From NCBI GenBank assembly GCA_965215885.1, contig CBDCEW010000105.1, positions 160,001 to 224,000 on the forward strand: 64,000 nucleotides of DNA, in the 5' to 3' direction. The stretch is from Candidatus Moanibacter sp. (lineage in GTDB: Bacteria; Verrucomicrobiota; Verrucomicrobiia; Opitutales; UBA2987). The position numbers were made by a program, and so were the translations under genes. The notes below the pieces were generated by a model. That model was not told the origin of the DNA, did no database searches, and was given only the letters and a program-made list of their open reading frames with translations. Shown piece by piece: positions 38,584-58,454 of the stretch (position 1 is the first letter of the stretch; the number at the start of each line of letters is the position of its first letter).

Positions 38584-39000
38584 TTAGCTCCCTGGTTTTT
38601 TCGCGATTACTTCCCGATAAGCATCGAGCGTGGACTGATAAGCGTCTTCAATCCGGCTGATTAATTCCGCCATTTCAGGCTGCATGCCCTCCTGCGCGAG
38701 GGACTCCAACCGGGAACAAGCTTTGGACAGTCTTTTCCCGCCCAGATTAGCGCTGCTTCCCGAAATGCAATGAGCGCTCCTGTGAATCTCCCTCGCATCT
38801 CCCCTCTCGTAGGCTTCCTTTATCAGCTCTATTCTCGGCCCATTCTCTGAAATGAAAAGACCAAGCAATTCCTGAAGCAACGAATCAGGAGAGTCCTCCG
38901 CCACCGTCGCCAGCAATTTTATTTGCTCGGCGTCCAGAATGGGCTCTTCCTCTGAAGTTGCCAAGCTGACAGTCGTATCCGTTATCACGCTATTCATCAT
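38584..39000 (-). CDS. Stand-alone Hpt phosphotransfer protein
   Basis: AHCISGSSANLG in a helical bundle pattern. Confidence 0.85.
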   Translation of the reverse strand: MMNSVITDTTVSLATSEEEPILDAEQIKLLATVAEDSPDSLLQELLGLFISENGPRIELIKEAYERGDAREIHRSAHCISGSSANLGGKRLSKACSRLESLAQEGMQPEMAELISRIEDAYQSTLDAYREVIAKKPGS

Positions 39001-39053
39001 TTATATAATACGAACGAAAGTGCGCAATATTTAGTTAAATTCCCGACAGATTC

Positions 39054-39422
39054 CTAGCTTTCGTCCAGGAGTTCATTCACACGAGCCATCAGCGCCGTGG
39101 GACTGAACGGCTTCGTAAAGACACTGACTGCGCCTGCTGCAAGCAATTCATCCTTTGTGCTCCCCTTACCCTGGCCGGTTACTACGATTAGTGGCACTCG
39201 CGCCAATTCGGAATCTGCCTTGAACTCCCTGATGAGCTCCTGACCCGACTTTCCCGGCAGCATAAGATCAATAATTCCTAGGTCAGGTTTACGAGCGCTG
39301 ATTCGACTAAACACGGAAGAACCATCGCGGCAGATGATCGTGTTGAATCCACTCTTCTTTAGCGTATACTCGAGAAGCCTTACCATCACCGCGTCGTCCT
39401 CCGCAATCAGGACATTCTTCAT
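39054..39422 (-). CDS. Single-domain response regulator
   Basis: AEDD, IDLMLP, VTG and TKPF motifs; ATGA overlap with the upstream gene. Confidence 0.92.
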   Translation of the reverse strand: MKNVLIAEDDAVMVRLLEYTLKKSGFNTIICRDGSSVFSRISARKPDLGIIDLMLPGKSGQELIREFKADSELARVPLIVVTGQGKGSTKDELLAAGAVSVFTKPFSPTALMARVNELLDES

Positions 39423-41116: not shown

Positions 41117-41270
41117 CTTAGGAACGAACCGAATTATAGATTCGCGTACCAATAATCCGATGTCATAATTCGAGACTTCCGGAACATCAGAGAAAATTCC
41201 GAAAGTGGGTTAATATCATGTTGAGAAATCCGAAATTGAATTCTAGGCTACAGTTTTTTCAGAATTCATC

Positions 41271-41591
41271 ATGCAATATCACCAATTCCATCTAAAGAAA
41301 AGTAAACGGGAATTAATAATTACGATTAACGAATCAAAATTCGACGCTTCCGCGGTAGGCGAGTTTAGGAACCGTCTGTCCGAGGCTTGGGAGGAGGTGA
41401 TATCGGGGGTGACAATCGATTTTTCCAAGGTCGATTTTATCGACTCCTCAGGGATCGGAGCGCTCTTGAGCGTTCAGAAGCGGCTCAAGCAGAGAGACGA
41501 ACCCGTTACCATATTGAACGCCAAGCCACCCGTCATTAGCGTAATAGAACTGCTCCGCCTGCATCGAGTATTTACTCTGCGTTCTCAATAA
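41271..41591 (+). CDS. STAS anti-sigma factor antagonist
   Basis: IDFSKVDFIDSSGIGALL with the phospho-acceptor Ser. Confidence 0.9.
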   Translation: MQYHQFHLKKSKRELIITINESKFDASAVGEFRNRLSEAWEEVISGVTIDFSKVDFIDSSGIGALLSVQKRLKQRDEPVTILNAKPPVISVIELLRLHRVFTLRSQ

Positions 41592-42735
41592 CCGTTATTC
41601 CGGGGGGCAAATCGTATTTCCACTCCTGAAGGGAGAAAGCCCACCGTTCCCTGATCGCTTCGATCTGCGGCTTTCCAATCGTGTAGACATTCTTTCTATA
41701 CGCGCGTTCCGATTCCACGTAAGCGCTGATCTGAGAGAGCCCACCCATCTTCTTCTCCAGGCGGAAGTGGTCATAGATTTCTTCGACCGCATCCATCGGA
41801 TTTCTTTCTAACGACTCGTATTTCAATTCGAAAAAACAATCCGTCGACAGTGAATTGCGATCTCTCAGAAACCTCCGCATGATTAATTCGTAATTCTCAA
41901 GCGTGATTTCTTCAAAATCCAAGTCCTTCCAGTTCTGCCACGCAAAGGCCGGCATTGTCCTTCCAAAGTGTCTAACCGTCGAACAAAATACCTCGAAAGG
42001 GTTGCGAACAATGTGGATGAATTTCGCTTTAGGGAATACTGATCTCAACCAGGGAATGCGCGCTGTCGCGGCGGGATTCTTCAAGAGCAGGCGCTTTCCC
42101 CTGTTTTCTTCACTGTAGGCCAGCTTCTTCAGAAGGTAGTTGTAGGTGTAGGCGAATTCTTCCAATTCCTCCTTTCCAACCCCTTCCAACAATATCGATC
42201 GCCTGTATATCTCCCGAAAGTGGCGAGGGAAGTAATAACAGTAGTAATAGCACAGCAGACCCATATTCCCGAGGGCCATTTCTTCTTCTTGTGGAGAATC
42301 GAGTGAGAGCCGCACATTGTCCATTCCTCGAGTTTCAGGCAGAATTTTCTCGATTATTGGCGGAGCGATTTTGAGCTTTCCGAGAAAATCCCAGGGCATA
42401 GCTGTCTGCAGAAACGAAATCCAGGCGAACTGTGGATCCTGGCTGAGGAGATTATGTAGATAAGTCGTGCCGCTTCGCCAATGTCCAACGATAAAAATCG
42501 GATCCTTCTCAATCTCGGTCTCCTCGATGCCACGATCGTGCATGAGCCGTTCCCACCGATAGAAGGGAAAACGCAGAATCACGGCCATTACCGCCGCCAG
42601 TCGGACCCAACGCGACTCTCCTTGAAAGGGACCATACCGGCGCTTCGTTTGAAGCAACGTGAGCAGATTGCTCCCCCCTAACGGGTGCAGTAGCGGTCTC
42701 TTAAATTCCTCTGGAGTAGATCGCGAGGACCTCAC
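41572..42735 (-). CDS. PAPS-dependent sulfotransferase (Sulfotransfer_3 / Stf3-like)
   Basis: FIVGHWRSGTTYLH (5'-PSB loop), PQEEE, LLKNP and HIVRNP; GTG start overlaps the PKS TAG by 1 nt. Confidence 0.9.
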   Translation of the reverse strand: MRSSRSTPEEFKRPLLHPLGGSNLLTLLQTKRRYGPFQGESRWVRLAAVMAVILRFPFYRWERLMHDRGIEETEIEKDPIFIVGHWRSGTTYLHNLLSQDPQFAWISFLQTAMPWDFLGKLKIAPPIIEKILPETRGMDNVRLSLDSPQEEEMALGNMGLLCYYYCYYFPRHFREIYRRSILLEGVGKEELEEFAYTYNYLLKKLAYSEENRGKRLLLKNPAATARIPWLRSVFPKAKFIHIVRNPFEVFCSTVRHFGRTMPAFAWQNWKDLDFEEITLENYELIMRRFLRDRNSLSTDCFFELKYESLERNPMDAVEEIYDHFRLEKKMGGLSQISAYVESERAYRKNVYTIGKPQIEAIRERWAFSLQEWKYDLPPGITVIENAE

Positions 42736-45700
42736 TACACAGTACTCGCATGTGCAGCATCGGAAGACTCGGCTTCTTTGAATCGAGCGACCGTCTCAGG
42801 CGAAATAAAATAGTTTTCACACTGGGGTCTCGCCGCCTCGAATTCGAGCGATTGTAACAATCGGTAATGAGCTAATGAATCTCTTACCTTGACAGGTCCC
42901 AAGGTGGGCCTGATACCGGAACTCTTACCGGTTAACAAACTGGAGAGTATGCATCCGGTAATCTCTCTCGAGTCTCGCCCTGCCAGCGTCAGAAGATGAT
43001 CGCCTCCCAATTCCTCTAAAAGGCTGGCAGTACCATTGGGTAGAAAGATCGTCTCGCTGATCTCTTCGTTTAACCGCAACAAACCTCCCGTCGTGAATAA
43101 TATATCATGTTGCGTTTCAAGGCGCTTAATGGCGTCGAAAACCCGAAAACAGGGCGGAAAGGAATCATCCACGATGAGAGAACCGGGTTGCAGTCGGTTC
43201 ACATCCAGTATTCCCGGTACATTCGTAGCGCCGAGAATGAAAGTAGCTTCATAAACCGCGTCCGGGAGCTTCCCTCGGCTCGTCTCGAGGCGCACGTCGC
43301 CCCGGAAATTCACTTCCTCAGCTAGCTTTCGGCGAATCTCATCTAGTGCCTCAGCCTTTTGATATAGATCACACAGTATCAACTCACGCGGATGCGGCAA
43401 AACCTCCAACATCAACCGAAGGGACGCATAACCAATCGATCCCAAGCCTACGATCGCGACACTTTCCTTCGAGAAATCCCGTTCCGTCTGGCTCAATAGT
43501 CCCTCTATCGACTTTATTATCGTGGCCGTTGTAGTGGCATGGCCTGTCGTGATCTCCGGCATATCGTCACGCTTGTCGATCCACTCAACTATCTTCCTGC
43601 CGTAATCCGTGGCAGATGGAATCAGGCCCGTCAGTGAGACTTGTGCGGCGCCCATCTTTGCCGCCACTTCCATCGCTCCTACAACATGCTCAACCAGGGC
43701 ATCCTGATCTTTGTAGAGTTCCGCCCCCAGCCGCGGCAGCATTATCAAGCCTATGCGTCCGAACGAAGTCTCGTAGAGATTTGACAAAAACGGCTGACCG
43801 CGGAGCCAATTGTGAACGATATCCTCCTTAGACAGGCCGGTCAGCGCTAAAAAGGCATCCGGAATATAGGCCAGTGCAACCGCATCCGCTCGGGGCAGAT
43901 CTTCCTGGTTGCCACTAACATTATCGATTATCTCCACCGTGAGGTAACTCGAGTCGAGCTCCTCATTCACAAAACCGTTGGCAGCTTGTCCGCTTTCCAA
44001 CATCCCATCCGCCTGGCTTTCCTGCAGGCACGGTACCGTATCCAGATAGCGTGCCAGGTTCTCTACCGTGGGATTCTGTAGAAAGACGTCCACCGGTAAC
44101 CGCCGGTTAAACGCCTGGGAAACTTCCGTGAGTATCTGCACGGCAAGCAATGAGTCTCCTCCGAGGTCAAAAAAGTTATCACGAATACCAATTCTATCGC
44201 TCTTAAAAACGATGTTTAGTATATCGACCAGGATCTTCTCGCTGGGAGTTCTCGGCGAAAGATATTCTGCTTGAATGTCGCTTCGCTGCAATGTCGGAGC
44301 CGGCAACTTGAGCCGATCGACTTTTCTGTTCGGGGTCATCGGGTATTCGTCCAACAGCACGTAGGTGCCTGGTCGCATGTACTCTGGCATCCGCTCCATC
44401 ATATAAGAGCGCAAGACGCCGACAATCCCATCATACTCATCTTCCGGTATGATATAAGCTGCCAATCCTTCACTCGGCAGGTCGCTCCGTTTGATTACGA
44501 TTGCCTGCTTCACGTAAGGATGACTCTTCAGGTGCTCCTCGATATCCTCCAATTCGATCCGATATCCGCGAAGTTTAATCTGGGAATCGTTGCGACCCAG
44601 AAAGTCAATCTTTCCATCGGGTCTGAAACGGGCCATATCGCCCGTTTCGTAGAGGCGCTCGCTCCTGCCGTTGGGAAGCGTGATCTGCAGGAACTTCTCC
44701 GCTGTCATTTCAGGTTGGTTATGGTAGCCACGCGCCAAACCGTCACCGCCGATGTAAAAATTACCCACAAAACCTGGCGGCAAGGCTTTGTGATTATCGT
44801 CCAGAATATAAACCGTCGTGTTGGCAATGGGCCGCCCAATGGACACAGTTCCCCCGCCCGTGGTTACCCTGTCAACAGTCGACCAGATGGTTGTCTCGGT
44901 AGGCCCGTAGAGGTTCCAGACCGCACGAGTAGAGGGTAAAAGCGCTTCCGCCAACTCCCGAGAAAGAGTCTCACCTCCGCAAAAGACGCGCAGGTCGTGT
45001 TTACCCTCCCATCCGGAATCCAGTAACATCTGCCAGGTTGCGGGAGTCGCCTGCATTGTAGTTACCGCATATTCATCCAGAAGAACGGATAGCCTTCGGC
45101 CATCGGAGGCTTCTTGCCTCGTAGCGATGACAACGCGCGCCTCAGATATAAGGGGAAGGAGTAACTCCAGTATCGAAATATCAAAGGAGAGAGTCGTCAC
45201 CGCCAGAAGTGTGTCGTCTGCGCTTAACCCCGGTAATTCTCTCATCGAGGTGAGAAAATTAACCACTGCCCGGTGGGGAATCTCGACACCCTTGGGCCTT
45301 CCCGTAGAGCCGGATGTATAGATTATGTAAGCGAGCGACTCTGAGGTCTGTCCACTAACGACCGGCGCTACCGCCGATTCGCCGCAACTCTCTATCAGCA
45401 CGGTTGTCCAATTGCCTTTGGGAAGATTCCTCAACAACTGATTCTGCGTAAGGACGACGCCGGGCTTGGCGTCATCCAGCATCTGCTCGAGCCGAAAGCT
45501 GGGAAAGGCGGGATCCAGAGGCACAAAACATCCACCCGATTTCAATATACCGAGAATACCGATCAGCATATCGAGCGATCGGTCCACCAGAATACCGACC
45601 GGCATATCCAACCCGATTCCGGCAGTCCGAAGTTTTTCCGCCACGGCGTTGGCACGCCTGTTCAATTCCAAATAGGTTAATGATTTGCCCGCACAGGTAA

Positions 45701-48700
45701 CCGCAACGGCTTCAGGCGTACGGGCGGCATGTTCGCTCACCAACTGATGCACGCAGGTTTCCTCCGGGCAATCGGAAGCGGTCGCATTCCACTCCTCGAG
45801 AATCTTCCTTTCCTCCTCCTGGGAGAGAAACGAAATCTCCGATATCCGCTTTCCGGGATGGACTACGAGATCCTCAAGCACCTGCTCGTAGAGCATATTG
45901 AGGCGGCCGATTGTTTCCGGTTCAAAAAGGTCGCGATTGTATTGCCAACAACCGTAAATGTTTCCATCCGCTTCTTCGACGACCAGCGAAATCTCGAATT
46001 GCGCCTGGCGCAAATTCAGGTCGATCGACTCAACGGAGATATCCCTGACCTTGAAATTGTGGCCACCTTGTCCAATAAGAAACACCGCGATACCCTGGTC
46101 GTCCACACCTGGAATTCGCTCCATCGAAAACGTTACCTGGAAAATCGGAGAACGGCTCGAATCGCGACGCACCTGCAAATGGTCGACCAACATGGATAGG
46201 GGATATTCCTGATTCTCAAATGCTCCGATTCGGGTATCGCTGACGCGGTCGAGGTAATCTGTAAAGACGGGGTCATCGTCGACCTTACTTCGCAGGGCGA
46301 CAGGATTGATGAAGTAGCCTACCAGATCATGAAATTCCTTGCGACGTCGGCCGTAGAAAGGACTACCGATGAGGAGATCATCCTGATTGCAGTAGCGATG
46401 CAAGAGGACCTGAAAAGCGGATAGCAACAGGGTGTAAAGCGTCACATTGCGCTCCGAGGCGAGCCCTTCTACCCTTTCGGTCAGATTCTCGTTCAGCTTG
46501 AAACCATGGGTCGCTCCGTTGAAACTCTGTATGGGCGGTCTAGGATGATCGGTCGGCAGATCGAGCACAAATTGCGCATCACTCATCTGATTCACCCAGT
46601 ATTTGAGCATACCCTCGCTCTCCGGCCCATCCAACAAATCCTGTTGCCACTTTACATAGTCGGCGTAGCGACATTTAAGTGGCGCAAAATCCGGTTCGAA
46701 TCCCGCCTTAATCGAGAAATAACTCTCGATTAAGTCATTCATGATCAGAACGATCGACCAGGCATCGGAAACGATATGATGCATGCAAAGCAAGGCCACG
46801 TGGGCGTTGTCTGCGGTGCGGAATAATTCGAGCCGAACTACCGGACCGCGCTCAAGATCAAAAGGTCGGTTGGTGTGCTCGATCAGCAACTCCTTGATCT
46901 CATCCCTGCTCAATTCAGTGGCATCATGTTCCCGAAAATCAATACTCCGCCCATCGTGAGTCACTTGTATCAGCTGTCCGTTTTCAGCCTTTATGGTGAC
47001 ATCGAGCATCGGATGCCGGCGGAAGAGCGCCGCGAAGGCCTTTTTCATCACCGGTATGTCGACATAGGGCGAGATGCTGGAACTGAAGACCAGATTATAG
47101 GCCGAACTCTCAGGAGCCAAACGGTTAAGAAACCAGAGCGCCCGCTGCCCGCGCGAAAGTGGAAATTCCTTTATCGCCGGATCCGATATCATGAGTGCAC
47201 TGCCCACAGCCCCATCCTCAGCGATCTCCCCAAGATCTCCTTCCCCGGACTGCAGCAACATTTCGAGCACCGATACCGCCAGTTGGGATATGTTCGGGCC
47301 CTGCAAAAACTGGCCCATTTGCAGATTAATGCCCAGGCTCGACTCCAGCCGATTCATCAATTCGATAGCCATCAGGGAATCGAGACCGATCTGAGTAAGA
47401 GGCGTCTCCCGCTCGACTTTGGTAGAACTCGTCCCAAACACCTGCGCAACCTCTTCACATATAAAATCCTCCAGAAGCTTTAGACGCTCTTCCGGTGGAG
47501 CGCCAATTATCATCGGCCGAATCGAACCGGCTTTGGCACTCGCCGAATCAGCGGCTTCCTTCTGAGCAACCAGTGAAAAAGTGGGAGATTTCGCCGTCGT
47601 CGGGTTAATTTTGAAGAGCAAATTCCAGTCAATCCTGGCAGCGCCAAGTTGAACCGGATCTCTCCCCAGGATCTCGGCAAAGATCTCCAGTGCTTCCTCC
47701 ACCTGGAAGGTCTTCATTCCCACTTTATCGAGGTATTGTGCCGTCATCTCATCACGCTCCACGAAACCCGCCCCCAAGATAGCGCCCCAGTTCAAGGTAA
47801 GCGCGGGAAGCCCCAGCGAGCGCCGGTAGTGAGCGAGCGCGTCGAGAAATAGATTGCCCGCGCAGTAGTTACTCTGGCGAGTCGCGCCGATCATCGACGA
47901 TATCGATGAGAGACAGACAAAGTGATCCAGGGGCATATCTTTTGTCTCAAGATGCAAGTTCCATGCCCCCAGCATTTTCGGCCTGAGCACCCTGTTAAAA
48001 CGCTCCCTGTCAAGGTCCTTAATGAAATCGTCATCGAGAACCATGGCACCGTGTATAACACCCTTTAAGGGAGGTAAACTGGACTTAATCTTCTCGACTA
48101 TCCGTGATACGTCCTCTTCCTTCGTAAAATCCCCTCTGGCATCGATAACAGCGACGCCTCCCGCGATCATCTCTTCGATGTCTCGCTTTTCTCCTTCCGT
48201 CTTTGCTCCACTGCGACTTCCAAGGACCAACGTTCCCGCTCCCATTCGAGCCATCCACTTTGCCACTTCCAGGCCAAACCCACTCGCCCCTCCCGTAATC
48301 AGATAGGAAGCATCCTTCTTAAATAGTCTCTTCGAGTCTGAAGGAGGACCGACCGGAATCGTGTCCAGTTGAAAAGAGAGGACGTTCTTTCCGATGTGCT
48401 TCGCCTGCGCCATGTAGCGAAACGCTTTCCCTGCCTCCGTAACTGGGAAAGATTTGAGGGGTAAGGGAGGCAACCTGTTTTCCGCAAACTCTGCCGAAAG
48501 CTCCATCAGGAGGGAGGCGATGTAGTGCGGCCTTTCCTCAACGTGTTGAGCCAGATCGATCGCAAAGTAGGAAATGTTGTTCTTGAAAGGTTCCAACCCG
48601 ATCATTGTGTTCTGGTAAATGTCTACTTTCCCTATTTCCAGAAAGCGGCCGTAGGGAGCCAGCACGGAGATACTCTTTCGTATCCAATCGCCTGCCAGCG

Positions 48701-51700
48701 AGTTGAGCACCACATCAACTCCGCCACCTTCAGTGATTTTCATGACCTCATCCGCAAAATCGAGGCTACGGGAATCCATCACATGGGAGACGCCCATATC
48801 CCGGAGGAACTCTCGCTTTTCCGGAGTGCCGGCGGTGGTAAATATCTCCGCTCCGATTCCCTTTGCGATGCGTATCGCCGCCTGTCCGACGCCCCCGGAC
48901 CCTGCGTGAATGAGGATTGTCTCCCCTTTCTGCAGATGTCCAAGATGGTTCAAAGCGTAATAGGCGGTAAGGTATACGGTAGGCAGCGTGGCCGCTTCCT
49001 CGAAACTCATGTGGCCCGGTTTACGAAAGATCATATTTCGATCAATCGTCACATGGGTCCTGAAACAGTAGGGGGCCATACCTGCCACTTCGTCACCTAC
49101 CTTCAGGTCCTCTACACCCTTACCTAATCTTAATATCGTGCCGGAAAAGTCATCTCCCAACCATCTCAGGTCTTTGCTGTTGCCCGGGTAGATTCCAAGA
49201 GCCTTCATCACATCGCGGAAATTAATCCCGCCCGCCGCAACTCTGATCTCCACTTCCCCTTCCTCCGGCGAACGCCTTGTCGTCTCGTTGAGTGACAGAT
49301 TGTCAAGTATTCCAGGCGTTGGTATCTCGAGACGGTAAGGAGTCACAGTATCTCCATTCACCGCGTTGTGCAGGCGAAGGGGGAGATCCTCATGGGGAAC
49401 ACTCAAGACCCGATGCACAAAACGCTTCCCCGACCGCAAAGCCAATTCAAATTCCTCATCATTGAGGATAATCTCCTCGAACAAGCCCCCTACCTCCTCG
49501 ACTTCCACCTCCGGATCCAAATCGATAACCGTCCAGCAGAATTCCTTATACTCATTGTTAGCCACCCGCAGGAATCCGGATAGTGGTGTGGATGCGATCG
49601 ATTGTAAGGTCTCATCTCCATTCAGGTATTGCGCACCCCGAGTAACCATCCATACCCTCGGTGCGGGATCGAGTGCGGCGCTTCCCAATGCCTTGGCCAG
49701 CAATAGGGTATTCAATACTCCCGTTTTTTGCGCCTCATCCAGGGAGACAGGATCCGTATCCGCTGAATTGCAGTGGTCGACACTCAAGCAATGGATGATA
49801 CCTCGAAACGTGAGGGACAGTTCTCCCACCGCCTCGATCAGCTTTGCAATGTCCTCGTGGCTTCCCGGCTGAAATTCAAAGTTCCATTCGTCCAATTGGG
49901 CAAATTCATCGCCCACCTCAGCAACCAGGCAAGATCGCTTCTCTTCGCGCAATCGTTCCGCCACCGCCCTTCCCGTGCCCTTATGGTCGGCGATTACCAG
50001 ATAGAGCTCGTTAATCTCTCCTTCTTTCTTCGGTTCCACCGCCTTCCTATCCAACTCCGGACCCTTAGCCAGAAAGACTGTTTGAGAGGTCTCTTCCTCT
50101 CTGGGGCCATCGACAAAGGATGCGACGTTTTCAAATCCGCTCTCATTGAGCAGCTTCTCCCACTTCTCACGTGGAAGTAATGCCGAATGTGGCCGCAAGT
50201 CGGTATCGCTGTACTGCCACCAACCCTTGAGTTGTCCAAAGACCATATCCAGGCCCAGCCGCGGCGACGTGACCTCCAGGAATATCAGCAAGCCGTTTGA
50301 TGCCAACAGATCTTGCACCACGCCGAGCGTTTTCCTCAGTTCCGAAGTTGCGTGTAGAACGTCCGTTGCCAGAATGAGATCAAATGAATGCAGTTTAATC
50401 CCCTGCTCGACGGGGTCCTTCTCAACATCGAGAAGGCGGTATTCTACAAAATCGTACTCGCTGAACTCCTTTCTTGCATCATTCAAAAACAGCGGTCCAA
50501 TGTCCGTGAAACTATATTCACTACGATCTTTCGGCAGTATCGGGAGCACGCTCCTCGTCAATGAACCGGTTCCCGCTCCTACTTCTAGAACGCGTAAGGT
50601 ACGTCGCTGCGGCAGGTCTTCAATAGCCCGCAAGACCGCCATCTGGATCAGTTCATTGTAAGCAAGAAAATCGGCGCCCTCTTTGTAAAAATCTGAGAAT
50701 CGCTCTACAGAGCCTCCCGGGAATATCACTTCCATTGGATCAACCTTCCCCGAGAGAATCTCTCCCAATCTCGCACCGCACACCCTCTCCAGATGTAGAT
50801 CAGAGGCAAAATTCGGATACTTCTCCTCCAATTCATCGATCAGCGGCAGGGCTTCCGCGGGCTTCGGCGCCTTTAACACTTCCCATTCTTCATCGGCCAC
50901 CGTCTTGAGAACGTCCTCTTTATCCAAAGCGACCAGGAACGAACGCGTCAACCGCTCATGCTGATCAACGATTCCCAGTTCCCCAACAAAATCACTGAAC
51001 CGAAATCTCTCTCCCGGAGTCGGGCGCCAACCCAGTTCGCAAAACGCATTTATGATAAATAGGACACAAATGTCTTCCACGGAGGGCATAAACTCGTTAA
51101 AGTAGCGCTCCAGATCATACCGTTTGTAAACTTCTCCTACACTCGGACTCAGCCCTCTCAATATCTCTTCAGTTCCCGCGAATTTCGCGGAGCCCGAAGC
51201 CCCACTCCCTCGCAAATGTCTCTCCTTCCACTCTAACTGGTAAAAGCAGCGAAATATGTCACTTTCGGACTTGGTGTCACTTTGTTCCACGCGTTCCACG
51301 CGGAATCCGAGAATGTCTGCCACACGCTCACCCCGATCATTGAATACCTCCACATTCGCTTCCATCACCTCACCATCATCGAGGTAGAGATCGGCGTGGC
51401 CCCAGAGCCGCGGCTCGATGGGTCCATACATGCGAACACGCTTTATCGTGGCGGGCAGGTAGAAGTTATCCTTCGCCAAACGCCCCTCCGGCGCTACCTG
51501 AGCGCCTTTCACGCATTGAAAACAGGCATCGAGCACAGCGGGGTGAAAAAGGTACTCTTCGAGACCCTCGAGAACTTCCTCCGACGCCACAATTTCCCCA
51601 ATTGTCTCACCCGGCTTAACCCAGATATTCTGCAAGAGCTGGAAATTGGGACCAAACTGGTATCCCGCATCTTTGTAATCGGAATAGTATTGATCGTGAT

Positions 51701-54700
51701 CGAGCTTCTCCTCCAAGTTATCCCGAATCGCGGCCAGGTCGACCGAATCGCGTTCTTGCGGAGTAAGTATCTGGAGCCGGCCATGCGCGTTTAAATCCCA
51801 ATCTGTCCTCGATAGCGTCGAACTGTAAATCCTGAATGAACCGTCCGCTTCATCAAAGAGAACTCGCAGCGTCGGCACGTTTCGATCCGAATAAAAGAGC
51901 GCCTTTGTTGTCTTAATATCCTCGACGACATAGTGCTCATCGGGAAAGAGTTCCCTCGCCACCGCAAATCCGATCTCGGCGAATCCGGAGGCCGGAAAAA
52001 TCATCGAGTCCCAGAATCGGTGATCGTCGAGATAGCTGAAAGCCCTCGGGTCCAATTCAAATTCCCAGGAAGGGCTCGGTGAACTCACTCTCACTCCGAG
52101 AAGCGGATGAACAATTGGCGAGAGTCGCTGGGCCTTCGATTCTTCCGATTCGAGCCAGAAACCCTCATGTTTCCACGGATAGGAAGGAAGACGAACGAAT
52201 CGACTGTCAGCGTCCTGCAGGGCTTCCCATTTAATCGGATAACCCATCGCATAGAGCCGACCGAGAGTCTCCAGCATATAGGATTGTTCCGGTTGTCTTC
52301 TTCTCAAGGACCCCAGGGTCGTGCCGGTCTTGCCGGCCTGCGTCAGGCACTCGTTAATCGATGCGGAATGGATGGGACTTGGCCCCAATTCGAGAAAGAG
52401 CTCATCTCCCCCTTCGATAATATTGTATACCGCATCGCTGAATCTGACGGGCTCCCGGACATTCTTCCACCAATACGAGGCGTCCAGTTTCTCGCCTCCC
52501 AACTTATCACCGGCGACGGTCGATATGAAAGGTACGTCTCCTGGTTTTGGCTCAATGTCCGCAAGCGATTCCAGAAGTTCATCCTTAATCGGATTCATCT
52601 GGTGGGTATGAAAAGCATAGTCAATCTGTAGCCAGCGAACGAAAACCTTCTGTTCCTCAAGAGGCTCGATGACCGTTTCAATAACTTCGGTGTCACCTGC
52701 CAAAGTAACCATGGCCGGTCCATTGATAGCAGCAATCGCGACCTGGTTCTCAAATCCCCGTATCGCTTCCTTCGCTTTTTCCTGCGTCAATCCCACCGCC
52801 GCCATCCGACCCGCTCCGCCCGTCTTTTCCTGCAAACGGCTGCGGTGGAAAATCACTTTCACAGCATCCTCTAGACTGTAAATACCAGCCCAATAGGCTG
52901 CCGCCACTTCACCCACACTGTGTCCCACCACTCTGACGGGTTCGACGCCGCGTGAACGCCACAATTCGGCCAGTCCCACCTGCACGGCAAATATGGCCGG
53001 TTGCGCAACATAAGTGCGATTTATGTTTGAATCGACCTTTCCTCGGGACATCTCCTCAAGCAGTGACCAACCGCCCAAAGCGTAGATCAGCTTATCGATC
53101 TGTTTGATGGCCTTGCGAAATACCGGTTCCGTTCTCAGGAGTTCCTGTCCCATTCCCCACCATTGGGGTCCCTGTCCGCTGAATACAAAAACAGATTTTG
53201 GTTCCTTGGCAGCGGCGCGATCGGACACCAAACCCGGCACCCGATTCTCTTCTCTTTCCCAGGCTTGCAGTTTGTCGGCCAGTTCCTTGGAAGTGACCCC
53301 AACGACTGCCAGCCGATGCTCATGGTGACTCTTACGCAGGGCCGCCGTGGAAGCTAAGTCGGGAAGGGAAACCCTACCATTCTGGGAGCCATTCTCGAGC
53401 ATATCGCGGAAGGCACCGACATAAACTTTCAGCGATTCCTCGGTATTGGCGGAGACCGGTAGCAGCACTGGCCCCTCCCATGAGCGTTTTTTTCGCTTGG
53501 GCTCAATCTTCTTCTTCTGCGGAGGCGCTTCTTCCAATACAATATGGGCATTTGTTCCACCGAAACCGAAGGAATTTACCGCCACCACAGCGGATTCTCC
53601 ATCGCACGGCAACGGCTCCGCCTCAGTGGGAACCCTTAATCGAAGCTCATCGAATTGTATGTTTGGGTTCGGTGTCTCGAAGTTCAGATTCGGTGGAATT
53701 GTCCGGTGCTTCAGGACAAGCGCCGCTTTTATCAAACCCGCCACCCCCGATCCGGATTCAAGATGGCCGATATTCGTCTTGACGGAACCGATGACACACT
53801 CCTCTCCCTTCCCTCGACCCCTGCAGAGGATGTTTCCGAGAGCCTGCAATTCGATCGGATCGCCTACCGGAGTGCCCGTTCCATGAGCTTCCATATAGCT
53901 TACCCTTTTCGGTGTTATGCCCGCCTGTCGGTATGCTTCTTCCAACATATCCGATTGCGATTTCACTCCCGGAACGGTCATTGCGTTCGTGCGGCCATCC
54001 TGGTTTACCACAGCTGCCCGAATAAGCGCATAGATGGGTAACCCTTCCTCCTGCGCCTTCCTAAGCGGCCTGATAACTAAAATCCCAGCGCCTTCTCCAC
54101 GTACGTAGCCATTGGCGCGAGCGTCGAAGGCATAACATTGCCCGTCCGGCGATAGCATGGAGGCCTTGCTGAACCCGATCGATGAATCTGGCGTCAAGAG
54201 GGCGTTGACTCCTCCCGCCAGCGCTGACTCACATTGACCATCCCATATGCTTTGACACGCCAGATTTATCGCTACCAAAGCCGATGAACAAGCCGTGTCG
54301 ACCGATAAGCTCGGGCCCTTAAAATTGTAGAGATAGGAGATTCGGTTGGAGGCGATGCTCAGTGTGCTCCCGCTATTCGTGTGCACATCCACTTCGGCAG
54401 GCCCCTTCATCTGAATATTGGCGTAGTCGTTACTGGCTATTCCAACGAATACACCTGTATTCGTCCCTGACATCCGATCCGGTGCCAGCCCACCATCTTC
54501 CAACGCCTCCCAAGTCACCTCCAGCAACCATCGCTGCTGGGGATCCATGCGCAGTGCTTCCCTCGGGGAAATCCCGAAAAATCGGGCATCAAATTTATCG
54601 ATTTCGTCGACAAATCCGCCCCAGCGCGTTATCATCTTGCCCGGTATCTGGGGATTCGGGTCGTAGTATCGATCGACATTCCAGCGGCCCTCCGGAACTT

Positions 54701-54821
54701 CCGTTATGCCACTTCTACCCTCAATCAGTAATTTCCAGAATGACTCCGGATCATATACTCCTCCCGGAAACCGACAGCCTATTCCAACTATTGCGAGAGT
54801 TTCCCTCCTCTTTCCACTCAT
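42735..54821 (-). CDS. Hybrid PKS-NRPS: KS-AT-DH-cMT-ER-KR-ACP-C-A-PCP plus terminal Rossmann (acyl-ACP reductase-like) domain
   Basis: DTACSS/HGTGT/NIGHLE, GHSVG+YAFH, HPAVLD, LEVGAGTG, IHAGSGGVG, ITGGASGFG+LDD+YCAGN, GLDSL, HHIVSD, YTSGSTGRPKG, GGDSL, VGLGSIG. Confidence 0.93.
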   Translation of the reverse strand: MSGKRRETLAIVGIGCRFPGGVYDPESFWKLLIEGRSGITEVPEGRWNVDRYYDPNPQIPGKMITRWGGFVDEIDKFDARFFGISPREALRMDPQQRWLLEVTWEALEDGGLAPDRMSGTNTGVFVGIASNDYANIQMKGPAEVDVHTNSGSTLSIASNRISYLYNFKGPSLSVDTACSSALVAINLACQSIWDGQCESALAGGVNALLTPDSSIGFSKASMLSPDGQCYAFDARANGYVRGEGAGILVIRPLRKAQEEGLPIYALIRAAVVNQDGRTNAMTVPGVKSQSDMLEEAYRQAGITPKRVSYMEAHGTGTPVGDPIELQALGNILCRGRGKGEECVIGSVKTNIGHLESGSGVAGLIKAALVLKHRTIPPNLNFETPNPNIQFDELRLRVPTEAEPLPCDGESAVVAVNSFGFGGTNAHIVLEEAPPQKKKIEPKRKKRSWEGPVLLPVSANTEESLKVYVGAFRDMLENGSQNGRVSLPDLASTAALRKSHHEHRLAVVGVTSKELADKLQAWEREENRVPGLVSDRAAAKEPKSVFVFSGQGPQWWGMGQELLRTEPVFRKAIKQIDKLIYALGGWSLLEEMSRGKVDSNINRTYVAQPAIFAVQVGLAELWRSRGVEPVRVVGHSVGEVAAAYWAGIYSLEDAVKVIFHRSRLQEKTGGAGRMAAVGLTQEKAKEAIRGFENQVAIAAINGPAMVTLAGDTEVIETVIEPLEEQKVFVRWLQIDYAFHTHQMNPIKDELLESLADIEPKPGDVPFISTVAGDKLGGEKLDASYWWKNVREPVRFSDAVYNIIEGGDELFLELGPSPIHSASINECLTQAGKTGTTLGSLRRRQPEQSYMLETLGRLYAMGYPIKWEALQDADSRFVRLPSYPWKHEGFWLESEESKAQRLSPIVHPLLGVRVSSPSPSWEFELDPRAFSYLDDHRFWDSMIFPASGFAEIGFAVARELFPDEHYVVEDIKTTKALFYSDRNVPTLRVLFDEADGSFRIYSSTLSRTDWDLNAHGRLQILTPQERDSVDLAAIRDNLEEKLDHDQYYSDYKDAGYQFGPNFQLLQNIWVKPGETIGEIVASEEVLEGLEEYLFHPAVLDACFQCVKGAQVAPEGRLAKDNFYLPATIKRVRMYGPIEPRLWGHADLYLDDGEVMEANVEVFNDRGERVADILGFRVERVEQSDTKSESDIFRCFYQLEWKERHLRGSGASGSAKFAGTEEILRGLSPSVGEVYKRYDLERYFNEFMPSVEDICVLFIINAFCELGWRPTPGERFRFSDFVGELGIVDQHERLTRSFLVALDKEDVLKTVADEEWEVLKAPKPAEALPLIDELEEKYPNFASDLHLERVCGARLGEILSGKVDPMEVIFPGGSVERFSDFYKEGADFLAYNELIQMAVLRAIEDLPQRRTLRVLEVGAGTGSLTRSVLPILPKDRSEYSFTDIGPLFLNDARKEFSEYDFVEYRLLDVEKDPVEQGIKLHSFDLILATDVLHATSELRKTLGVVQDLLASNGLLIFLEVTSPRLGLDMVFGQLKGWWQYSDTDLRPHSALLPREKWEKLLNESGFENVASFVDGPREEETSQTVFLAKGPELDRKAVEPKKEGEINELYLVIADHKGTGRAVAERLREEKRSCLVAEVGDEFAQLDEWNFEFQPGSHEDIAKLIEAVGELSLTFRGIIHCLSVDHCNSADTDPVSLDEAQKTGVLNTLLLAKALGSAALDPAPRVWMVTRGAQYLNGDETLQSIASTPLSGFLRVANNEYKEFCWTVIDLDPEVEVEEVGGLFEEIILNDEEFELALRSGKRFVHRVLSVPHEDLPLRLHNAVNGDTVTPYRLEIPTPGILDNLSLNETTRRSPEEGEVEIRVAAGGINFRDVMKALGIYPGNSKDLRWLGDDFSGTILRLGKGVEDLKVGDEVAGMAPYCFRTHVTIDRNMIFRKPGHMSFEEAATLPTVYLTAYYALNHLGHLQKGETILIHAGSGGVGQAAIRIAKGIGAEIFTTAGTPEKREFLRDMGVSHVMDSRSLDFADEVMKITEGGGVDVVLNSLAGDWIRKSISVLAPYGRFLEIGKVDIYQNTMIGLEPFKNNISYFAIDLAQHVEERPHYIASLLMELSAEFAENRLPPLPLKSFPVTEAGKAFRYMAQAKHIGKNVLSFQLDTIPVGPPSDSKRLFKKDASYLITGGASGFGLEVAKWMARMGAGTLVLGSRSGAKTEGEKRDIEEMIAGGVAVIDARGDFTKEEDVSRIVEKIKSSLPPLKGVIHGAMVLDDDFIKDLDRERFNRVLRPKMLGAWNLHLETKDMPLDHFVCLSSISSMIGATRQSNYCAGNLFLDALAHYRRSLGLPALTLNWGAILGAGFVERDEMTAQYLDKVGMKTFQVEEALEIFAEILGRDPVQLGAARIDWNLLFKINPTTAKSPTFSLVAQKEAADSASAKAGSIRPMIIGAPPEERLKLLEDFICEEVAQVFGTSSTKVERETPLTQIGLDSLMAIELMNRLESSLGINLQMGQFLQGPNISQLAVSVLEMLLQSGEGDLGEIAEDGAVGSALMISDPAIKEFPLSRGQRALWFLNRLAPESSAYNLVFSSSISPYVDIPVMKKAFAALFRRHPMLDVTIKAENGQLIQVTHDGRSIDFREHDATELSRDEIKELLIEHTNRPFDLERGPVVRLELFRTADNAHVALLCMHHIVSDAWSIVLIMNDLIESYFSIKAGFEPDFAPLKCRYADYVKWQQDLLDGPESEGMLKYWVNQMSDAQFVLDLPTDHPRPPIQSFNGATHGFKLNENLTERVEGLASERNVTLYTLLLSAFQVLLHRYCNQDDLLIGSPFYGRRRKEFHDLVGYFINPVALRSKVDDDPVFTDYLDRVSDTRIGAFENQEYPLSMLVDHLQVRRDSSRSPIFQVTFSMERIPGVDDQGIAVFLIGQGGHNFKVRDISVESIDLNLRQAQFEISLVVEEADGNIYGCWQYNRDLFEPETIGRLNMLYEQVLEDLVVHPGKRISEISFLSQEEERKILEEWNATASDCPEETCVHQLVSEHAARTPEAVAVTCAGKSLTYLELNRRANAVAEKLRTAGIGLDMPVGILVDRSLDMLIGILGILKSGGCFVPLDPAFPSFRLEQMLDDAKPGVVLTQNQLLRNLPKGNWTTVLIESCGESAVAPVVSGQTSESLAYIIYTSGSTGRPKGVEIPHRAVVNFLTSMRELPGLSADDTLLAVTTLSFDISILELLLPLISEARVVIATRQEASDGRRLSVLLDEYAVTTMQATPATWQMLLDSGWEGKHDLRVFCGGETLSRELAEALLPSTRAVWNLYGPTETTIWSTVDRVTTGGGTVSIGRPIANTTVYILDDNHKALPPGFVGNFYIGGDGLARGYHNQPEMTAEKFLQITLPNGRSERLYETGDMARFRPDGKIDFLGRNDSQIKLRGYRIELEDIEEHLKSHPYVKQAIVIKRSDLPSEGLAAYIIPEDEYDGIVGVLRSYMMERMPEYMRPGTYVLLDEYPMTPNRKVDRLKLPAPTLQRSDIQAEYLSPRTPSEKILVDILNIVFKSDRIGIRDNFFDLGGDSLLAVQILTEVSQAFNRRLPVDVFLQNPTVENLARYLDTVPCLQESQADGMLESGQAANGFVNEELDSSYLTVEIIDNVSGNQEDLPRADAVALAYIPDAFLALTGLSKEDIVHNWLRGQPFLSNLYETSFGRIGLIMLPRLGAELYKDQDALVEHVVGAMEVAAKMGAAQVSLTGLIPSATDYGRKIVEWIDKRDDMPEITTGHATTTATIIKSIEGLLSQTERDFSKESVAIVGLGSIGYASLRLMLEVLPHPRELILCDLYQKAEALDEIRRKLAEEVNFRGDVRLETSRGKLPDAVYEATFILGATNVPGILDVNRLQPGSLIVDDSFPPCFRVFDAIKRLETQHDILFTTGGLLRLNEEISETIFLPNGTASLLEELGGDHLLTLAGRDSREITGCILSSLLTGKSSGIRPTLGPVKVRDSLAHYRLLQSLEFEAARPQCENYFISPETVARFKEAESSDAAHASTV

Positions 54822-54994: not shown

Positions 54995-55023
54995 ATTATA
55001 GGTTTTCTCAAGTCCTTCTCCAA
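54995..55023 (-). promoter_or_regulatory. Candidate sigma70 promoter for the PKS-NRPS operon
   Basis: TTGGAG-17-TATAAT on the minus strand; GGAGGAG RBS before the ATG at 54821. Confidence 0.4.
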
Positions 55024-55436
55024 TGGGTAGTAATCGGTCAGCACGCAAGGGTACCAAAAAGGAACCTCCCGGAGGGTGACAGCCAAAATTATCTTCCAAA
55101 AGCTTTGAGAATTTCTTCGAGGGAATCTCACATCGCACTCCCGGCTTCGCCCACCGACAACATCCCGGGCATGCCCCTCGTCTATTCAATATTAAGCCGA
55201 AGAATAAATTTGCTAACCCCTTTGTCAATCAATTCATTCCGGTCTCTCACGAACGCCGCGGAAGTACCACGAGACCCACTCTGTCGCCGATCTTTAGTAC
55301 TCGAATTCGCAATTGACCGCCCGCCAATAATGCCAATACGAAGTAAATCACGTAATTCCGCTTCTAGTCTTCCAACCGGTCCTTTGCCCTACTGCCTGCC
55401 AATGGGAGACTGCCGTCAGCAAGGTCATTTGCTAAT

Positions 55437-58400
55437 ATGAAATTAACAGAAATCGCCATCAAGGAAAACAGGCTTACTTACGCTCTGATTCTGTTTGTCG
55501 TAATCGGCGGCCTTATCGCATTCTTCAACCTTCCCCGTTTCGAAGATCCAAAGATTCCCTTTCGCTACGCCTTCATTACTACACTGTATCCGGGTGCTTC
55601 GGTGGAAAGGATGGAGACCCTCGTCACGGAGAGAATCGAAGAGATCCTGAGCGAAATCCCCGAGATCGAATTCATAAACGGCGAATCACGAAAAAACGCT
55701 TCCGGTATTGTCGTGAAGATTCAGGACCGTTACACGCAAGTAAAACCTGTCTGGGATCGCATTCGCCGAAAACTCGATCGTCTCAAGAACACGCTGCCCG
55801 AAGGAGTGCAGGGCCCATTCTTCAATGATGAATATGGAGAGGTATTCGGCACGATGATTGCCGTCACCGGAAAAGATCTGACCTTCCCTGAGATCAGGCG
55901 AGTTACCCTGGCGCTTCGTAAGAAGCTTCTTCGGCTTGAGGAAGTCTCCAAAGTCATCACCCTGGGAGATCAAGAAGAGCAAATCGTCGTCCAGTACGAC
56001 GATGCCGAGATGGCCGAAATCGGCCTCTCTCCTCTCCACCTCAAATCGTTTCTCGAGGCACAAAACGTTATTGCTCCGGGCGGAAGCATCCGACAGGGAG
56101 ACACGCGCGTCGCCGTGGAATCTCGAAACGACCTGAATTCGGTCGAGGCCGTTGAGGATCTCCAGGTTTCCCTTCCCGAAGAAGAGGATATCTTCGCTCT
56201 CGGGGAGCTGCTGGATATTAGTCGCGAGATACGCCACCCCCCACTGAGTATTCTGAGATCATCCGGGGAGCGCGGTATCGGACTCGCCGTTTCTTTGCGC
56301 CAGGGCGGAAATATCGAGAAACTGGGTCGCGACGTCCGCAGGGTTGTTGACCACTACATGGCTGAAGTGTCCAGCGACGTTGAGTTTCAATTTGTCGCCT
56401 TTGAACCGGAGCGTGTCACCTACCGAGTCAACCAGTTTTTTATAGATCTCCTGCAGAGCCTCGTCATTGTAATGGTTATATTGATGTTGGCGCTCGGCCT
56501 GAGAACCGGGTCAATCGTTGCCAGCATGATGCCACTCGTCATCCTCGCCACTCTCGCTGTCATGCTTGGCCTCAAACTCAATATCAATCTCGTCGCTCTG
56601 GCTGCTTTCATCGTTGTTCTCGGTATCATGGTCGACAACCATATTGTGATATCTGAACGCATTCTGACCTTGCGTGAGAAAGGTGAATCTTCCCACCGTG
56701 CCGCCATCGCGGCAACAAGCCAGCTCTACGCACCTCTCCTCACCGCCACCGCCACTACGATTTCGGGGTTCTTGCCAATTTACCTCGCCCAGTCTTCCAG
56801 CGGTGAATACGTCACTCCACTTTTCGAGGTAGTCACTATCGCCCTTATCTGCTCCACCTTCTTCGCTTTCACGGTTACTCCTCTTCTCTCCCTCCGCCTC
56901 TTCAAGATCGCTCCCCAGTCCGCAGCTTCAACCTTCTGGAAGCTGCTCTATCGTTTCTATCGCAATATTCTCCTCGCCCTCATGCCGCGGCCGCTCCTCG
57001 CGCTCTCCGTTCTCTTTCTCCTGTTCCTGCTTTCCCTCTATACCTTCCGTTTTGTCCCCACCATCTTCTTCCCTCCCTCGGACCGGCCTGTTTTTACACT
57101 CGAACTGGAATTTCCCTCCGGCACTGTCATCGAGAAAACGGAAGAAGCTGCCTCCAAGATCGAATCCTATGTCATGGAGAACCTCGTTTCGGATTCTCCA
57201 TCAGAGTCCCGTATTCTAAACTGGGTCGCATTTGTTGGACGAAACGCGCCTCGCTTTGTCCTGAACCACCGCACCCGCGAATACAGTCCGGAGTATACCT
57301 ATTTTCTCTTTAATATCACCTCCCCAAAATTGATTCCCTTCTTCCGCGGGAAGCTGGAAGAATTCTGCCACGCCACTTTCCCTCAGGCAACGGTTCGTAT
57401 CCAACCCATCGAAGCCGGTCCAGCCGTTGGTTTTCCCATTATAGTCCATGCCGCCGGCGATGATATCGATGGGATTTTTCGAATAGCCGATGAAGTTGCC
57501 AACTACATGAGCGGGATTCCCGGACTCTACAACATCAGCAACAATTGGGGACGGTCCGTTAAAAAGCTTCACGTCGTAATCGATGAAGATAAAGCCGCCC
57601 TCGCCGCGGTTACTCGTGGCGAAATCGCTCTAACTCTCCAGACTTTCCTTACCGGTATCCCTGCAACCGATTTACGAATCGGAAGTAACGTAATTCCCGT
57701 CTTCGTAAAAAGCACCGTCAATGGGATGAATGATGTAGAAGAGATTAAATCGCTTCACGTCTTCTCGCGCCTCAAGGAGACGACTGTTCCCCTCGGTGAG
57801 ATCGCTGAAGTTGTGAAAGTCTTCGAGTCGGCCAACATTATTAGGAGGGACTTTCAGCGTACTGTCACGGTAGGGGCCGATGTCAGGGAAGGAACTAACT
57901 ATAAAAAGGTCGACGACCAGATCGAAGCCTTCCTCTCCCGCAATCGTTCCCGCTGGGGAAACGATTACCACGTGCGATTAGGGGGACAGGGATCGGAATC
58001 CGCCAAAGCCAATAAATCGATCCTTGTTAACCTCCCTTGGGCAATTTTCATCATATTGCTCCTCCTTATCAGGCAGACACGCTCCATTCGTAGAACCTTC
58101 ATTATCATGTGCGCCGTACCCATGGGCGTCATCGGGGTGGTTTTTGGCCTCCTCGCCACCAGGCAACCATTTGGATTTACCACCCTCATCGGTATAGTAT
58201 CGCTCACCGGTATTGTCGTTAACAACGCCATCATCCTCATTGATCGCATTCGCCTCAATGAAAATGCCGCCCAGTTTACTCGTCAGGAATGCATAATCGA
58301 AGCGGCTCTCAATCGCCTTCGTCCCATCCTTCTTACCACCCTTACCACTGTTGGAGGAGTTTTTCCCCTCTACCTGAGAGCGAATCCAACCTGGCAGGGC

Positions 58401-58454
58401 ATGGCCGTGGCCATTATTTTCGGTCTCTCTTTCGCCACTCTTCTCGTCCTCTGA
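55437..58454 (+). CDS. AcrB/AcrD/AcrF-family RND efflux permease, last TM helix interrupted
   Basis: LPRFEDP, YPGAS, GIMVDN, GIVVNNAIILID and RLRPILLT; in-frame continuation FMVPLLYALLF to 58547 after the TGA. Confidence 0.88.
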   Translation: MKLTEIAIKENRLTYALILFVVIGGLIAFFNLPRFEDPKIPFRYAFITTLYPGASVERMETLVTERIEEILSEIPEIEFINGESRKNASGIVVKIQDRYTQVKPVWDRIRRKLDRLKNTLPEGVQGPFFNDEYGEVFGTMIAVTGKDLTFPEIRRVTLALRKKLLRLEEVSKVITLGDQEEQIVVQYDDAEMAEIGLSPLHLKSFLEAQNVIAPGGSIRQGDTRVAVESRNDLNSVEAVEDLQVSLPEEEDIFALGELLDISREIRHPPLSILRSSGERGIGLAVSLRQGGNIEKLGRDVRRVVDHYMAEVSSDVEFQFVAFEPERVTYRVNQFFIDLLQSLVIVMVILMLALGLRTGSIVASMMPLVILATLAVMLGLKLNINLVALAAFIVVLGIMVDNHIVISERILTLREKGESSHRAAIAATSQLYAPLLTATATTISGFLPIYLAQSSSGEYVTPLFEVVTIALICSTFFAFTVTPLLSLRLFKIAPQSAASTFWKLLYRFYRNILLALMPRPLLALSVLFLLFLLSLYTFRFVPTIFFPPSDRPVFTLELEFPSGTVIEKTEEAASKIESYVMENLVSDSPSESRILNWVAFVGRNAPRFVLNHRTREYSPEYTYFLFNITSPKLIPFFRGKLEEFCHATFPQATVRIQPIEAGPAVGFPIIVHAAGDDIDGIFRIADEVANYMSGIPGLYNISNNWGRSVKKLHVVIDEDKAALAAVTRGEIALTLQTFLTGIPATDLRIGSNVIPVFVKSTVNGMNDVEEIKSLHVFSRLKETTVPLGEIAEVVKVFESANIIRRDFQRTVTVGADVREGTNYKKVDDQIEAFLSRNRSRWGNDYHVRLGGQGSESAKANKSILVNLPWAIFIILLLLIRQTRSIRRTFIIMCAVPMGVIGVVFGLLATRQPFGFTTLIGIVSLTGIVVNNAIILIDRIRLNENAAQFTRQECIIEAALNRLRPILLTTLTTVGGVFPLYLRANPTWQGMAVAIIFGLSFATLLVL

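Follow-up and report, generated by a model that had tools for sequence, protein, structure and literature searches.

A putative terminal amidation domain ends a sulfotransferase-linked polyketide synthase-peptide synthetase of the Opitutales

How might an assembly line discharge its product when its last carrier protein is followed by neither a thioesterase nor a conventional reductase? The question is raised by a gene in a stretch of 64,000 nucleotides from Candidatus Moanibacter sp. (assembly GCA_965215885.1, contig CBDCEW010000105.1, positions 160,001 to 224,000), which is called the window below and supplies all coordinates. The gene (42735..54821, minus strand) encodes a 4028-residue hybrid of a highly reducing polyketide synthase (PKS) and a nonribosomal peptide synthetase (NRPS), and its open reading frame, Pfam matches, and catalytic motifs give the order KS-AT-DH-cMT-ER-KR-ACP-C-A-PCP, with a domain of the putative terminal amidation domain (TAD) family at the end. 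By Pfam and motifs, the PKS module KS-AT-DH-cMT-ER-KR-ACP spans residues 8-2522 (47256..54800, minus strand) without a loading module, and its catalytic motifs are present (DTACSS, GHSVG/YAFH, the DH His/Asp, ExGxGxG, the ER GGVG, the KR LDD/Tyr, and GLDSL). The NRPS module C-A-PCP, assigned in the same way, covers residues 2551-3593 (44043..47171, minus strand) and has a glycine-type A domain. Its code, DILQFGLIWK, differs by one residue from what we take to be the glycine code, and the closest homologue, P0003, has DILQLGLIWK. Behind the peptidyl carrier protein domain (PCP, residues 3530-3593, with GGDSL at residues 3554-58, 44148-44162) stands only the terminal domain, which runs from about residue 3638 to the C-terminus at residue 4028.

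A preliminary description of this region, made from the sequence alone, had called the terminal domain a noncanonical release module resembling cyanobacterial acyl-ACP reductase (AAR). It had reported that the motif of a short-chain dehydrogenase/reductase (SDR) type R domain is missing after the PCP, and neither TGxTGxxG nor YxxxK occurs there. A Pfam scan of the last 398 residues found no family at all, with no thioesterase (TE) and no NAD_binding_4. The reported lack of a TE motif needs one qualification, since a chance GxSxG string, GKSSG, is present at residue 3965, although Pfam recognizes no TE. The domain that had been placed at 42735..43900 is real, but it begins a few residues further out, near 43910.

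Structural evidence gives the domain its identity. In a phmmer search of the PDB, entries 9e4s and 9e4x match across the whole domain at E 1e-89, and the next match is PigE entry 4ppm at 8e-7. An AlphaFold (AF2) model built from a 75-sequence alignment reached pLDDT 94.9, whereas a single-sequence prediction reached only 44.9. Foldseek aligns this model with an entry named 'TAD from Carmabin Biosynthetic Pathway' (E 3e-50, TM 0.91, 40% identity) and, at a greater distance, with AAR (E 1e-16, TM 0.62, 18% identity). A wide structural search (VIA) superposes it on the CarI TAD with Z 51.7 and a root-mean-square deviation (rmsd) of 2.0 over 386 of the model's 391 residues, followed by AAR (Z 27.8, rmsd 3.6 over 314 residues) and the next fold at Z 13.1. 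The best structural matches are the TAD, AAR, and other NAD-dependent dehydrogenases. The terminal domain (42738..43910, minus strand) is a member of the published putative TAD family and has the AAR-like two-lobed fold. The AAR-like fold that had been proposed is borne out, and the structural comparison suggested at that time returned the TAD and then AAR as best matches, neither an SDR R domain nor an amino-acid dehydrogenase. Novelty of the release domain is not supported, because the domain lies far nearer the TAD family than AAR; the family, its AAR likeness, and its catalytic Cys were already published in 2024.

Several other assignments were rejected. For a thioesterase there is no PF00975 match in Pfam, and the model superposes on the TAD. 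An SDR-type R domain is likewise discarded, with PF07993 missing behind the PCP along with the two motifs. A reductase-transaminase of the PigE/TamH kind would carry a fused class III aminotransferase, which is missing; on the domain, the NCBIfam model for PigE gives E 1e-14 and 53.9 bits against a cut-off of 850, over the reductase part only. AAR proper is set aside on a score below the TIGR04058 cut-off (E 3e-4, 20.3 bits against 449.7) and on the fusion of the domain into a 4028-residue protein rather than a stand-alone enzyme.

The active-site residues tell the same family story. All motifs that had been listed for the domain are present and in order: AAKMGAAQVSLTGLIPS (residues 3720-36), ITTGHATT (3757-64), VAIVGLGSIG (3788-97), IVDDSFP (3883-89), and ITGCILSSL (3954-62). 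The residue numbers used in the preprint that describes the TAD family (10.1101/2024.10.28.620694) fit the 9e4s chain by one constant offset, and alignment on this basis, all on the minus strand, gives the following equivalences. Thr-Thr-Gly-His at 3758-3761 (43539..43550) corresponds to CarI TTG 2042-2044 plus a His, and the GxGxxG dinucleotide P-loop, here GLGSIG at 3792-3797 (43431..43448), to CarI 2076-2081. Asp3818 (43368..43370) is the counterpart of CarI Asp2102, the NAD(H)-selecting residue of that protein. In the DDSFP loop at 3885-3889 (43155..43169), Asp3886 matches CarI Asp2170, the nicotinamide Asp. Cys3957 (42951..42953), the predicted acyl-relay nucleophile, aligns with CarI Cys2238 and through it with AAR Cys294, where the preprint places the CarI residue; the Cys in ITGCIL had been picked out earlier as the catalytic one, and the two assignments agree.

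Every TAD signature residue named in the preprint aligns in this domain, with the sole exception of Gly2172, which is replaced by Phe. The nicotinamide loop thus keeps the Asp, Asp, Ser, and Pro of Asp-Asp-Ser-Gly-Pro, and the substitution falls at a family-variable position; the residue concerned, Phe3888, aligns with both CarI Gly2172 and AAR Tyr247. At the level of sequence, the adenosine pocket is not of the NADP(H) type, because Asp3818 corresponds to the CarI residue that blocks the 2'-phosphate, and the domain is predicted from its sequence to depend on NAD(H) and not NADP(H).

A search among 1.84 billion found many homologues of the domain, with 923 representatives reaching E<=0.001 and 479 reaching E<=1e-30, and residues were counted over 375 distinct homologous domains, the window's own included. 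The position of Cys3957 holds Cys in 373 of them, the other two falling outside alignment coverage; the NAD-selecting position of Asp2102 holds Asp in 373, and GxGxxG is found in 362. The window's domain has the TAD combination of TTGH and DDS (272/375), and a Tyr-type sister clade has TTGD/DYS (93/375). Proven reductases differ at these sites, with TTGN/DGG in AAR and TSGN/DVA in PigE entry 4ppm, so that the window's domain keeps the TAD pair His3761/Asp3886, in contrast to Asn/Gly in AAR and Asn/Val in PigE. The acid residue of the Tyr-type clade is not lost but moves to the first position (TTGD). This hints that TADs might need a carboxylate that AAR does not, although the argument rests on one evolutionary event. 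Relative to the window (43539-43550/43155-43169), the Tyr type shows a coupled change of His/Asp to Asp/Tyr plus a change of Thr to Arg three residues on; the active-site acid seems to cross to the other side between otherwise matching megasynthases.

A midpoint-rooted FastTree phylogeny with SH support, built on 158 domains that were drawn by motif class from a set of 371, places the Asp type (TTGH...DDSF, including the window's domain) and the Tyr type as sisters with SH 99. Together they join a DDSY type, whose full-length members carry the domain directly behind a PKS ACP (SH 98). Most of the best homologues of about 4000 residues have the same architecture and a glycine-type code. Judged by its residues, the Tyr type (TTGD...DYSF) fits cluster 3 of the preprint, described there as mostly Verrucomicrobiota with Tyr at Asp2170. 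The window's protein shares with that cluster the sister-clade position, the architecture of about 4000 residues, the glycine-type code, and the Phe before Pro; it differs in having TTGH/DDSF where the cluster-3 type has TTGD/DYSF, and therefore Asp rather than the Tyr that defines the cluster.

The residue at the Phe3888/Tyr247 position also follows the host enzyme. Among 218 homologues of at least 1000 residues, it is aromatic in 103 of the 104 with an ER and in 2 of the 114 without one, which suggests that an aromatic residue at this site may mark a pocket for long acyl chains; these counts come nearly from one clade and are therefore a hint at such a pocket, not a statistical test. In AAR, Tyr247 lines the acyl tunnel, and the Y247F variant is about 50% active whereas Y247A shows no substrate binding (PMC7089970).

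The gene context adds a second enzyme. A gene for a 387-residue 3'-phosphoadenosine 5'-phosphosulfate (PAPS)-dependent sulfotransferase (PF13469; 41572..42735, minus strand) has a GTG start that overlaps the megasynthase stop codon, and a divergent gene (55437..58454, plus strand; Pfam) encodes an AcrB-family transporter of the resistance-nodulation-division (RND) class, a candidate exporter. Conservation was assessed in 41 genomes, the window's own and 40 relatives. The terminal domain is present in 12 of them (its own, all 8 relatives of the family, and 3 of the 32 others of the order), and a sulfotransferase of at least 51% identity lies directly downstream of the megasynthase in these same 12. 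Among the non-carriers, two have sulfotransferase homologues at 35-38% and three have weak matches. The RND gene lies divergently before the megasynthase in the window and in all six relatives fetched, out of 11 carriers. In the flanks of these seven loci, no TE, R, transaminase, aldehyde reductase, or amidotransferase gene was recognizably conserved. The closest titled loci, L002 and L003, belong to Opitutales metagenome-assembled genomes (MAGs); they are possible duplicates and are not counted separately. Among 300 further genomes sampled evenly across the phylum, no full-length homologue of the domain was found, only one weak match of 78 residues (in G155, E 9.8e-6), and the system therefore appears to be lineage-restricted. 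Two observations speak against a strict link to the sulfotransferase: of the 31 metagenome loci of the Tyr type, just 4 have an adjacent homologue, and none lies within 10 kb downstream in the Myxococcota locus L004. Identities of TAD and sulfotransferase rise together (rho 0.77, n=17), but kinship and possible duplicates confound this relation and it was set aside.

The reading that we favor, to which we give about an even chance, is that the TAD-family domain off-loads an N-acyl-glycine through a Cys3957 thioester, most likely as a C-terminal amide, N-acyl-glycinamide. Amide release is preferred because the domain belongs to the TAD family and has the His/Asp pair. According to the preprint (10.1101/2024.10.28.620694), the family includes CarI (carmabin), VatR (vatiamide E/F), and HcaD (hectoramide B), whose products are amides (also PMC10949194). 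The preprint describes a set of 757 homologues and the structures 9E4S (the CarI TAD), 9E4U, 9E4X, 9E50, and 9E56, with dimerization through the N-terminal lobe as a family trait. The CarI TAD binds NAD(H), which its Asp2102 favors over NADP(H) and CoA. The invariant Cys2238 sits beside the nicotinamide, where the pantetheine arm of the PCP reaches it.

By this route, the single PKS module would make or extend a reduced, methyl-branched acyl chain, and C-A-PCP would join it to glycine. We infer that the pantetheine arm would then enter the NAD tunnel and pass the acyl-glycyl group to Cys3957 in a ping-pong manner, as in AAR and in keeping with the CarI crosslinking, while Phe3888 lines a long-chain pocket. 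NAD(H) would rebind, and a nitrogen donor would resolve the thioester. The coupled sulfotransferase might finally sulfate the lipid, and the RND protein might export the product.

Several observations weigh against amide release. No TAD has released a product in vitro, whether offered ammonia or each of the 20 amino acids, and those of CarI and VatR proved inactive; the preprint's authors put this failure down to inadequate substrates or a missing component (10.1101/2024.10.28.620694). The accessible part of the preprint identifies no nitrogen source, and no nitrogen-donor gene was found in the conserved locus here. The amide pathways of CarI, VatR, and HcaD are 85-95% identical and therefore come close to a single data point, and the window's branch stands apart in the FastTree phylogeny from the TADs of peptide lines, the CarI-like P0207 among them. 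If the PKS is fully reducing and the product an amide, there is no obvious hydroxyl that the sulfotransferase could use. Finally, 6 of the 375 homologues continue into an intact TE or SDR-R domain, so that a TAD need not be the only release domain of its protein.

The missing hydroxyl is where an AAR-type reduction would fit, and this alternative is possible, although we hold it only tentatively. NADH would reduce the Cys3957 thioester to an N-acyl-aminoacetaldehyde and then an N-acyl-ethanolamine, the second step being carried out by the same domain or by a housekeeping dehydrogenase, and a sulfate ester sulfolipid would follow. The reductive route is kept alive by its sulfotransferase partner, which needs an acceptor and whose close orthologues occur in exactly the genomes that carry the domain. 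The members of this fold that we found to be characterized biochemically, AAR (PMC7089970), PigE (PMC8341465), and TamH (PMC9594044), are thioester reductases, and TamH is specific for NADH (PMC9594044). The CarI TAD also binds NADH (3.5 uM) more tightly than NAD+ (11.6 uM; 10.1101/2024.10.28.620694). Phe3888 at the acyl-tunnel position of AAR Tyr247 and the placement of a related clade's domain directly behind a PKS ACP point the same way. By analogy, the sponge swf clusters combine a reducing PKS with an R-ST protein, and primary sulfates have been proposed as their products (PMC3908369).

Other evidence makes reduction a poor default, contrary to the preliminary description, which had assumed it. 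The nearest relatives of known pathway yield amides, the His3761/Asp3886 pair is TAD-type and not reductase-type, and the predicted cofactor is NAD(H). Reductases of the AAR fold stop at the aldehyde, and the locus has no second reductase. In 27 of the 31 Tyr-type loci no sulfotransferase homologue lies next to the gene, and the aromatic-residue correlation, almost wholly one clade, argues for a long acyl substrate rather than for redox chemistry. The more specific proposal that the window's branch is a lipid-dedicated NADH thioester reductase, which with the sulfotransferase and the RND protein would give an undescribed sulfated, methyl-branched N-acyl-ethanolamine as a family-wide Opitutales lipid, is a possibility that we hold about as tentatively. 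If it were true, cyanobacterial TAD amidation might likewise run through an aldehyde.

A redox-silent Cys relay is improbable. It would hydrolyze the thioester to the N-acyl-glycine acid or transfer the chain to an acceptor with an alcohol or amine function, for example a lipid head group, before sulfation. The acyl-enzyme forms spontaneously in AAR (PMC7089970), a hydroxylated acceptor would provide the sulfation site, and a nitrogen source appears neither in the locus nor in the accessible text of the preprint. The NAD-binding residues, near-invariant across the family, would be superfluous for plain hydrolysis, however, and the locus has no conserved gene that would supply an acceptor. Most improbable is an on-line tailoring or accessory oxidoreductase with release in trans, for which the inertness of the CarI and VatR TADs in vitro and the second release domain of the TAD-TE and TAD-SDR-R fusions can be cited, but only 7 of the 375 homologues have more than 100 residues behind the domain, nothing follows it here, the conserved locus has no TE or R gene, and the pantetheine of the CarI PCP reaches the Cys (10.1101/2024.10.28.620694).

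The fusions deserve a closer look, as they call a pure release role of TADs into question. A TAD is followed by an SDR-type R domain in P0078, P0101, P0118, and P0329, and by a TE in P0279 and P0297. A TE precedes the TAD in P0144, and a methyltransferase follows it in P0117. Two homologues contain a possible in-cis nitrogen-handling domain beside the TAD, namely P0303 (KS-AT-ACP-class III aminotransferase-TAD) and P0312 (adenylation-ACP-KS-AT-ACP-aminotransferase-luciferase-like monooxygenase-TAD). P0284 and the Myxococcota locus L004 show a reducing PKS, a weak C domain, an A domain with an embedded nitroreductase-type oxidase, a PCP, and a TAD, a layout that suggests an azole adjoining the terminus. 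Eight DDSY-type proteins of about 2500 residues (P0102, P0107, P0109, P0110, P0113, P0115, P0122, and P0267) have KS-AT-DH-ER-KR-ACP-TAD without an NRPS. They would yield primary fatty amides or fatty aldehydes and offer the simplest test of TAD chemistry.

Comparison with known systems shows what is distinctive about this locus. With the TADs of CarI, VatR, and HcaD the domain shares its place after the last PCP, its length of about 400 residues, and its fold, and with CarI in particular the Cys, the TTG, the GxGxxG, the NAD-selecting Asp, the nicotinamide Asp, and the loop Pro. Those cyanobacterial domains serve multi-module peptide lines, whereas the host here is a one-module highly reducing PKS-Gly-NRPS, and unlike them the window's TAD has a sulfotransferase and an RND gene as partners and carries Phe for Gly2172 on a separate branch of the tree. 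AAR (TIGR04058; PDB 6JZQ/6JZU/6JZY/6JZZ; PMC7089970) shares the two-lobed fold, the position of the catalytic Cys, the TTG, and an aromatic residue at Tyr247; it is stand-alone, uses NADPH, and works with aldehyde-deformylating oxygenase (ADO). PigE (PMC8341465) and TamH (PMC9594044), which belong to natural-product pathways, contain Cys-relay domains of the AAR fold. The substrate of TamH must be carrier-bound and its cofactor is NADH, but both proteins are fused to a pyridoxal-phosphate transaminase and act in trans, whereas the window's domain lies in cis with its PCP and has no transaminase in the locus. The swf system of sponge symbionts (SwfA, a PKS, and SwfB, an R-ST; PMC3908369) likewise brings together a reducing PKS of one module, a terminal domain other than a TE, and a sulfotransferase. 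It has neither an NRPS module nor a methyltransferase, its R and ST parts are fused in a separate protein, and a radical SAM enzyme is present, so that the likeness is an analogy of logic only. TabE was considered as a relative and rejected as an unrelated protein of the aldehyde dehydrogenase type.

The distinctive part is therefore the context: the sulfotransferase and the RND gene, and a highly-reducing-PKS branch with an aromatic residue at the Tyr247 site. The open-access literature yielded neither a PKS-NRPS-TAD-sulfotransferase-RND locus nor a matching sulfolipid, although figures or supplements of the TAD preprint may show one, and no later paper on TAD mechanism was found there. With the whole assembly line in one polypeptide and a simple predicted substrate, N-acyl-Gly-S-PCP, the system would be a good test bed for TAD chemistry. 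A single expression experiment could tell amide from aldehyde or alcohol from acid, and it would reveal in addition what is made by a three-gene locus found in every sampled member of this Opitutales family.

The acceptor of the sulfotransferase is not indicated by its relatives, as no NCBIfam model fits and the Atlas gives only generic names. Its PDB matches are distant (2zq5 and 2z6v, then 4gox and the CurM ST 4gbm). It may resemble mycobacterial Stf3. Two sulfotransferase matches (G303:C29:110224-111330 and G333:C1:144754-145887) contain one stop codon each, probably at the match end, and one Verrucomicrobiales MAG carries the domain gene and a sulfotransferase gene under distant locus tags. 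Homologues at 35% turn up in lipid-modifying contexts (L060:2362-16131, L061:2952-9080, and L062:3001-9071): one follows an NAD(P)-dependent oxidoreductase in a PKS cluster on a Gloeothece plasmid, and others lie in Azospirillum and Palleronia within clusters of phytoene desaturase, glycosyltransferase, and acyltransferase genes. Tyr-type loci without a sulfotransferase (L019-L047) often have a conserved gene for a protein of about 737 residues next (19 loci) and one of about 239 residues on the opposite strand (14 loci).

The host genome (90.3% complete) has an APS kinase gene and two genes of the phosphopantetheinyl transferase family, and ADO (PF11266) was not found in it. In four metatranscriptome runs, which come from two studies, contigs cover pieces over the full length of the megasynthase and also its TAD, which fits its expression; they are no proof, because the runs were chosen with this stretch and DNA was possibly present. 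These contigs leave several bins uncovered in the RND and PP2C genes, and the junction between megasynthase and sulfotransferase is not bridged by 31 letters in any listed piece; neither fact is informative. Upstream of the megasynthase there are two sigma-70-like sites (54995-55228, minus strand), against 0.5 +/- 0.9 in shuffles. Behind the RND gene, at 58485-58774, 288 bases are swapped for 38 other letters in RNA contigs of runs X1 and X2, which probably reflects strain variation or a repeat that belongs elsewhere.

Just downstream of the locus, 38584-41591 holds genes for an Hpt protein, a response regulator, an anti-sigma kinase-GAF-SpoIIE phosphatase, and a STAS anti-anti-sigma factor, and SpoIIE phosphatase and STAS genes also lie behind the locus in relative G306. 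On the far side, 59873-63916 (minus strand) encodes a MASE1-PAS hybrid histidine kinase and an adenosine-deaminase-family protein; in relatives G302 and G304, counterparts of this second protein are found close to the RND gene.

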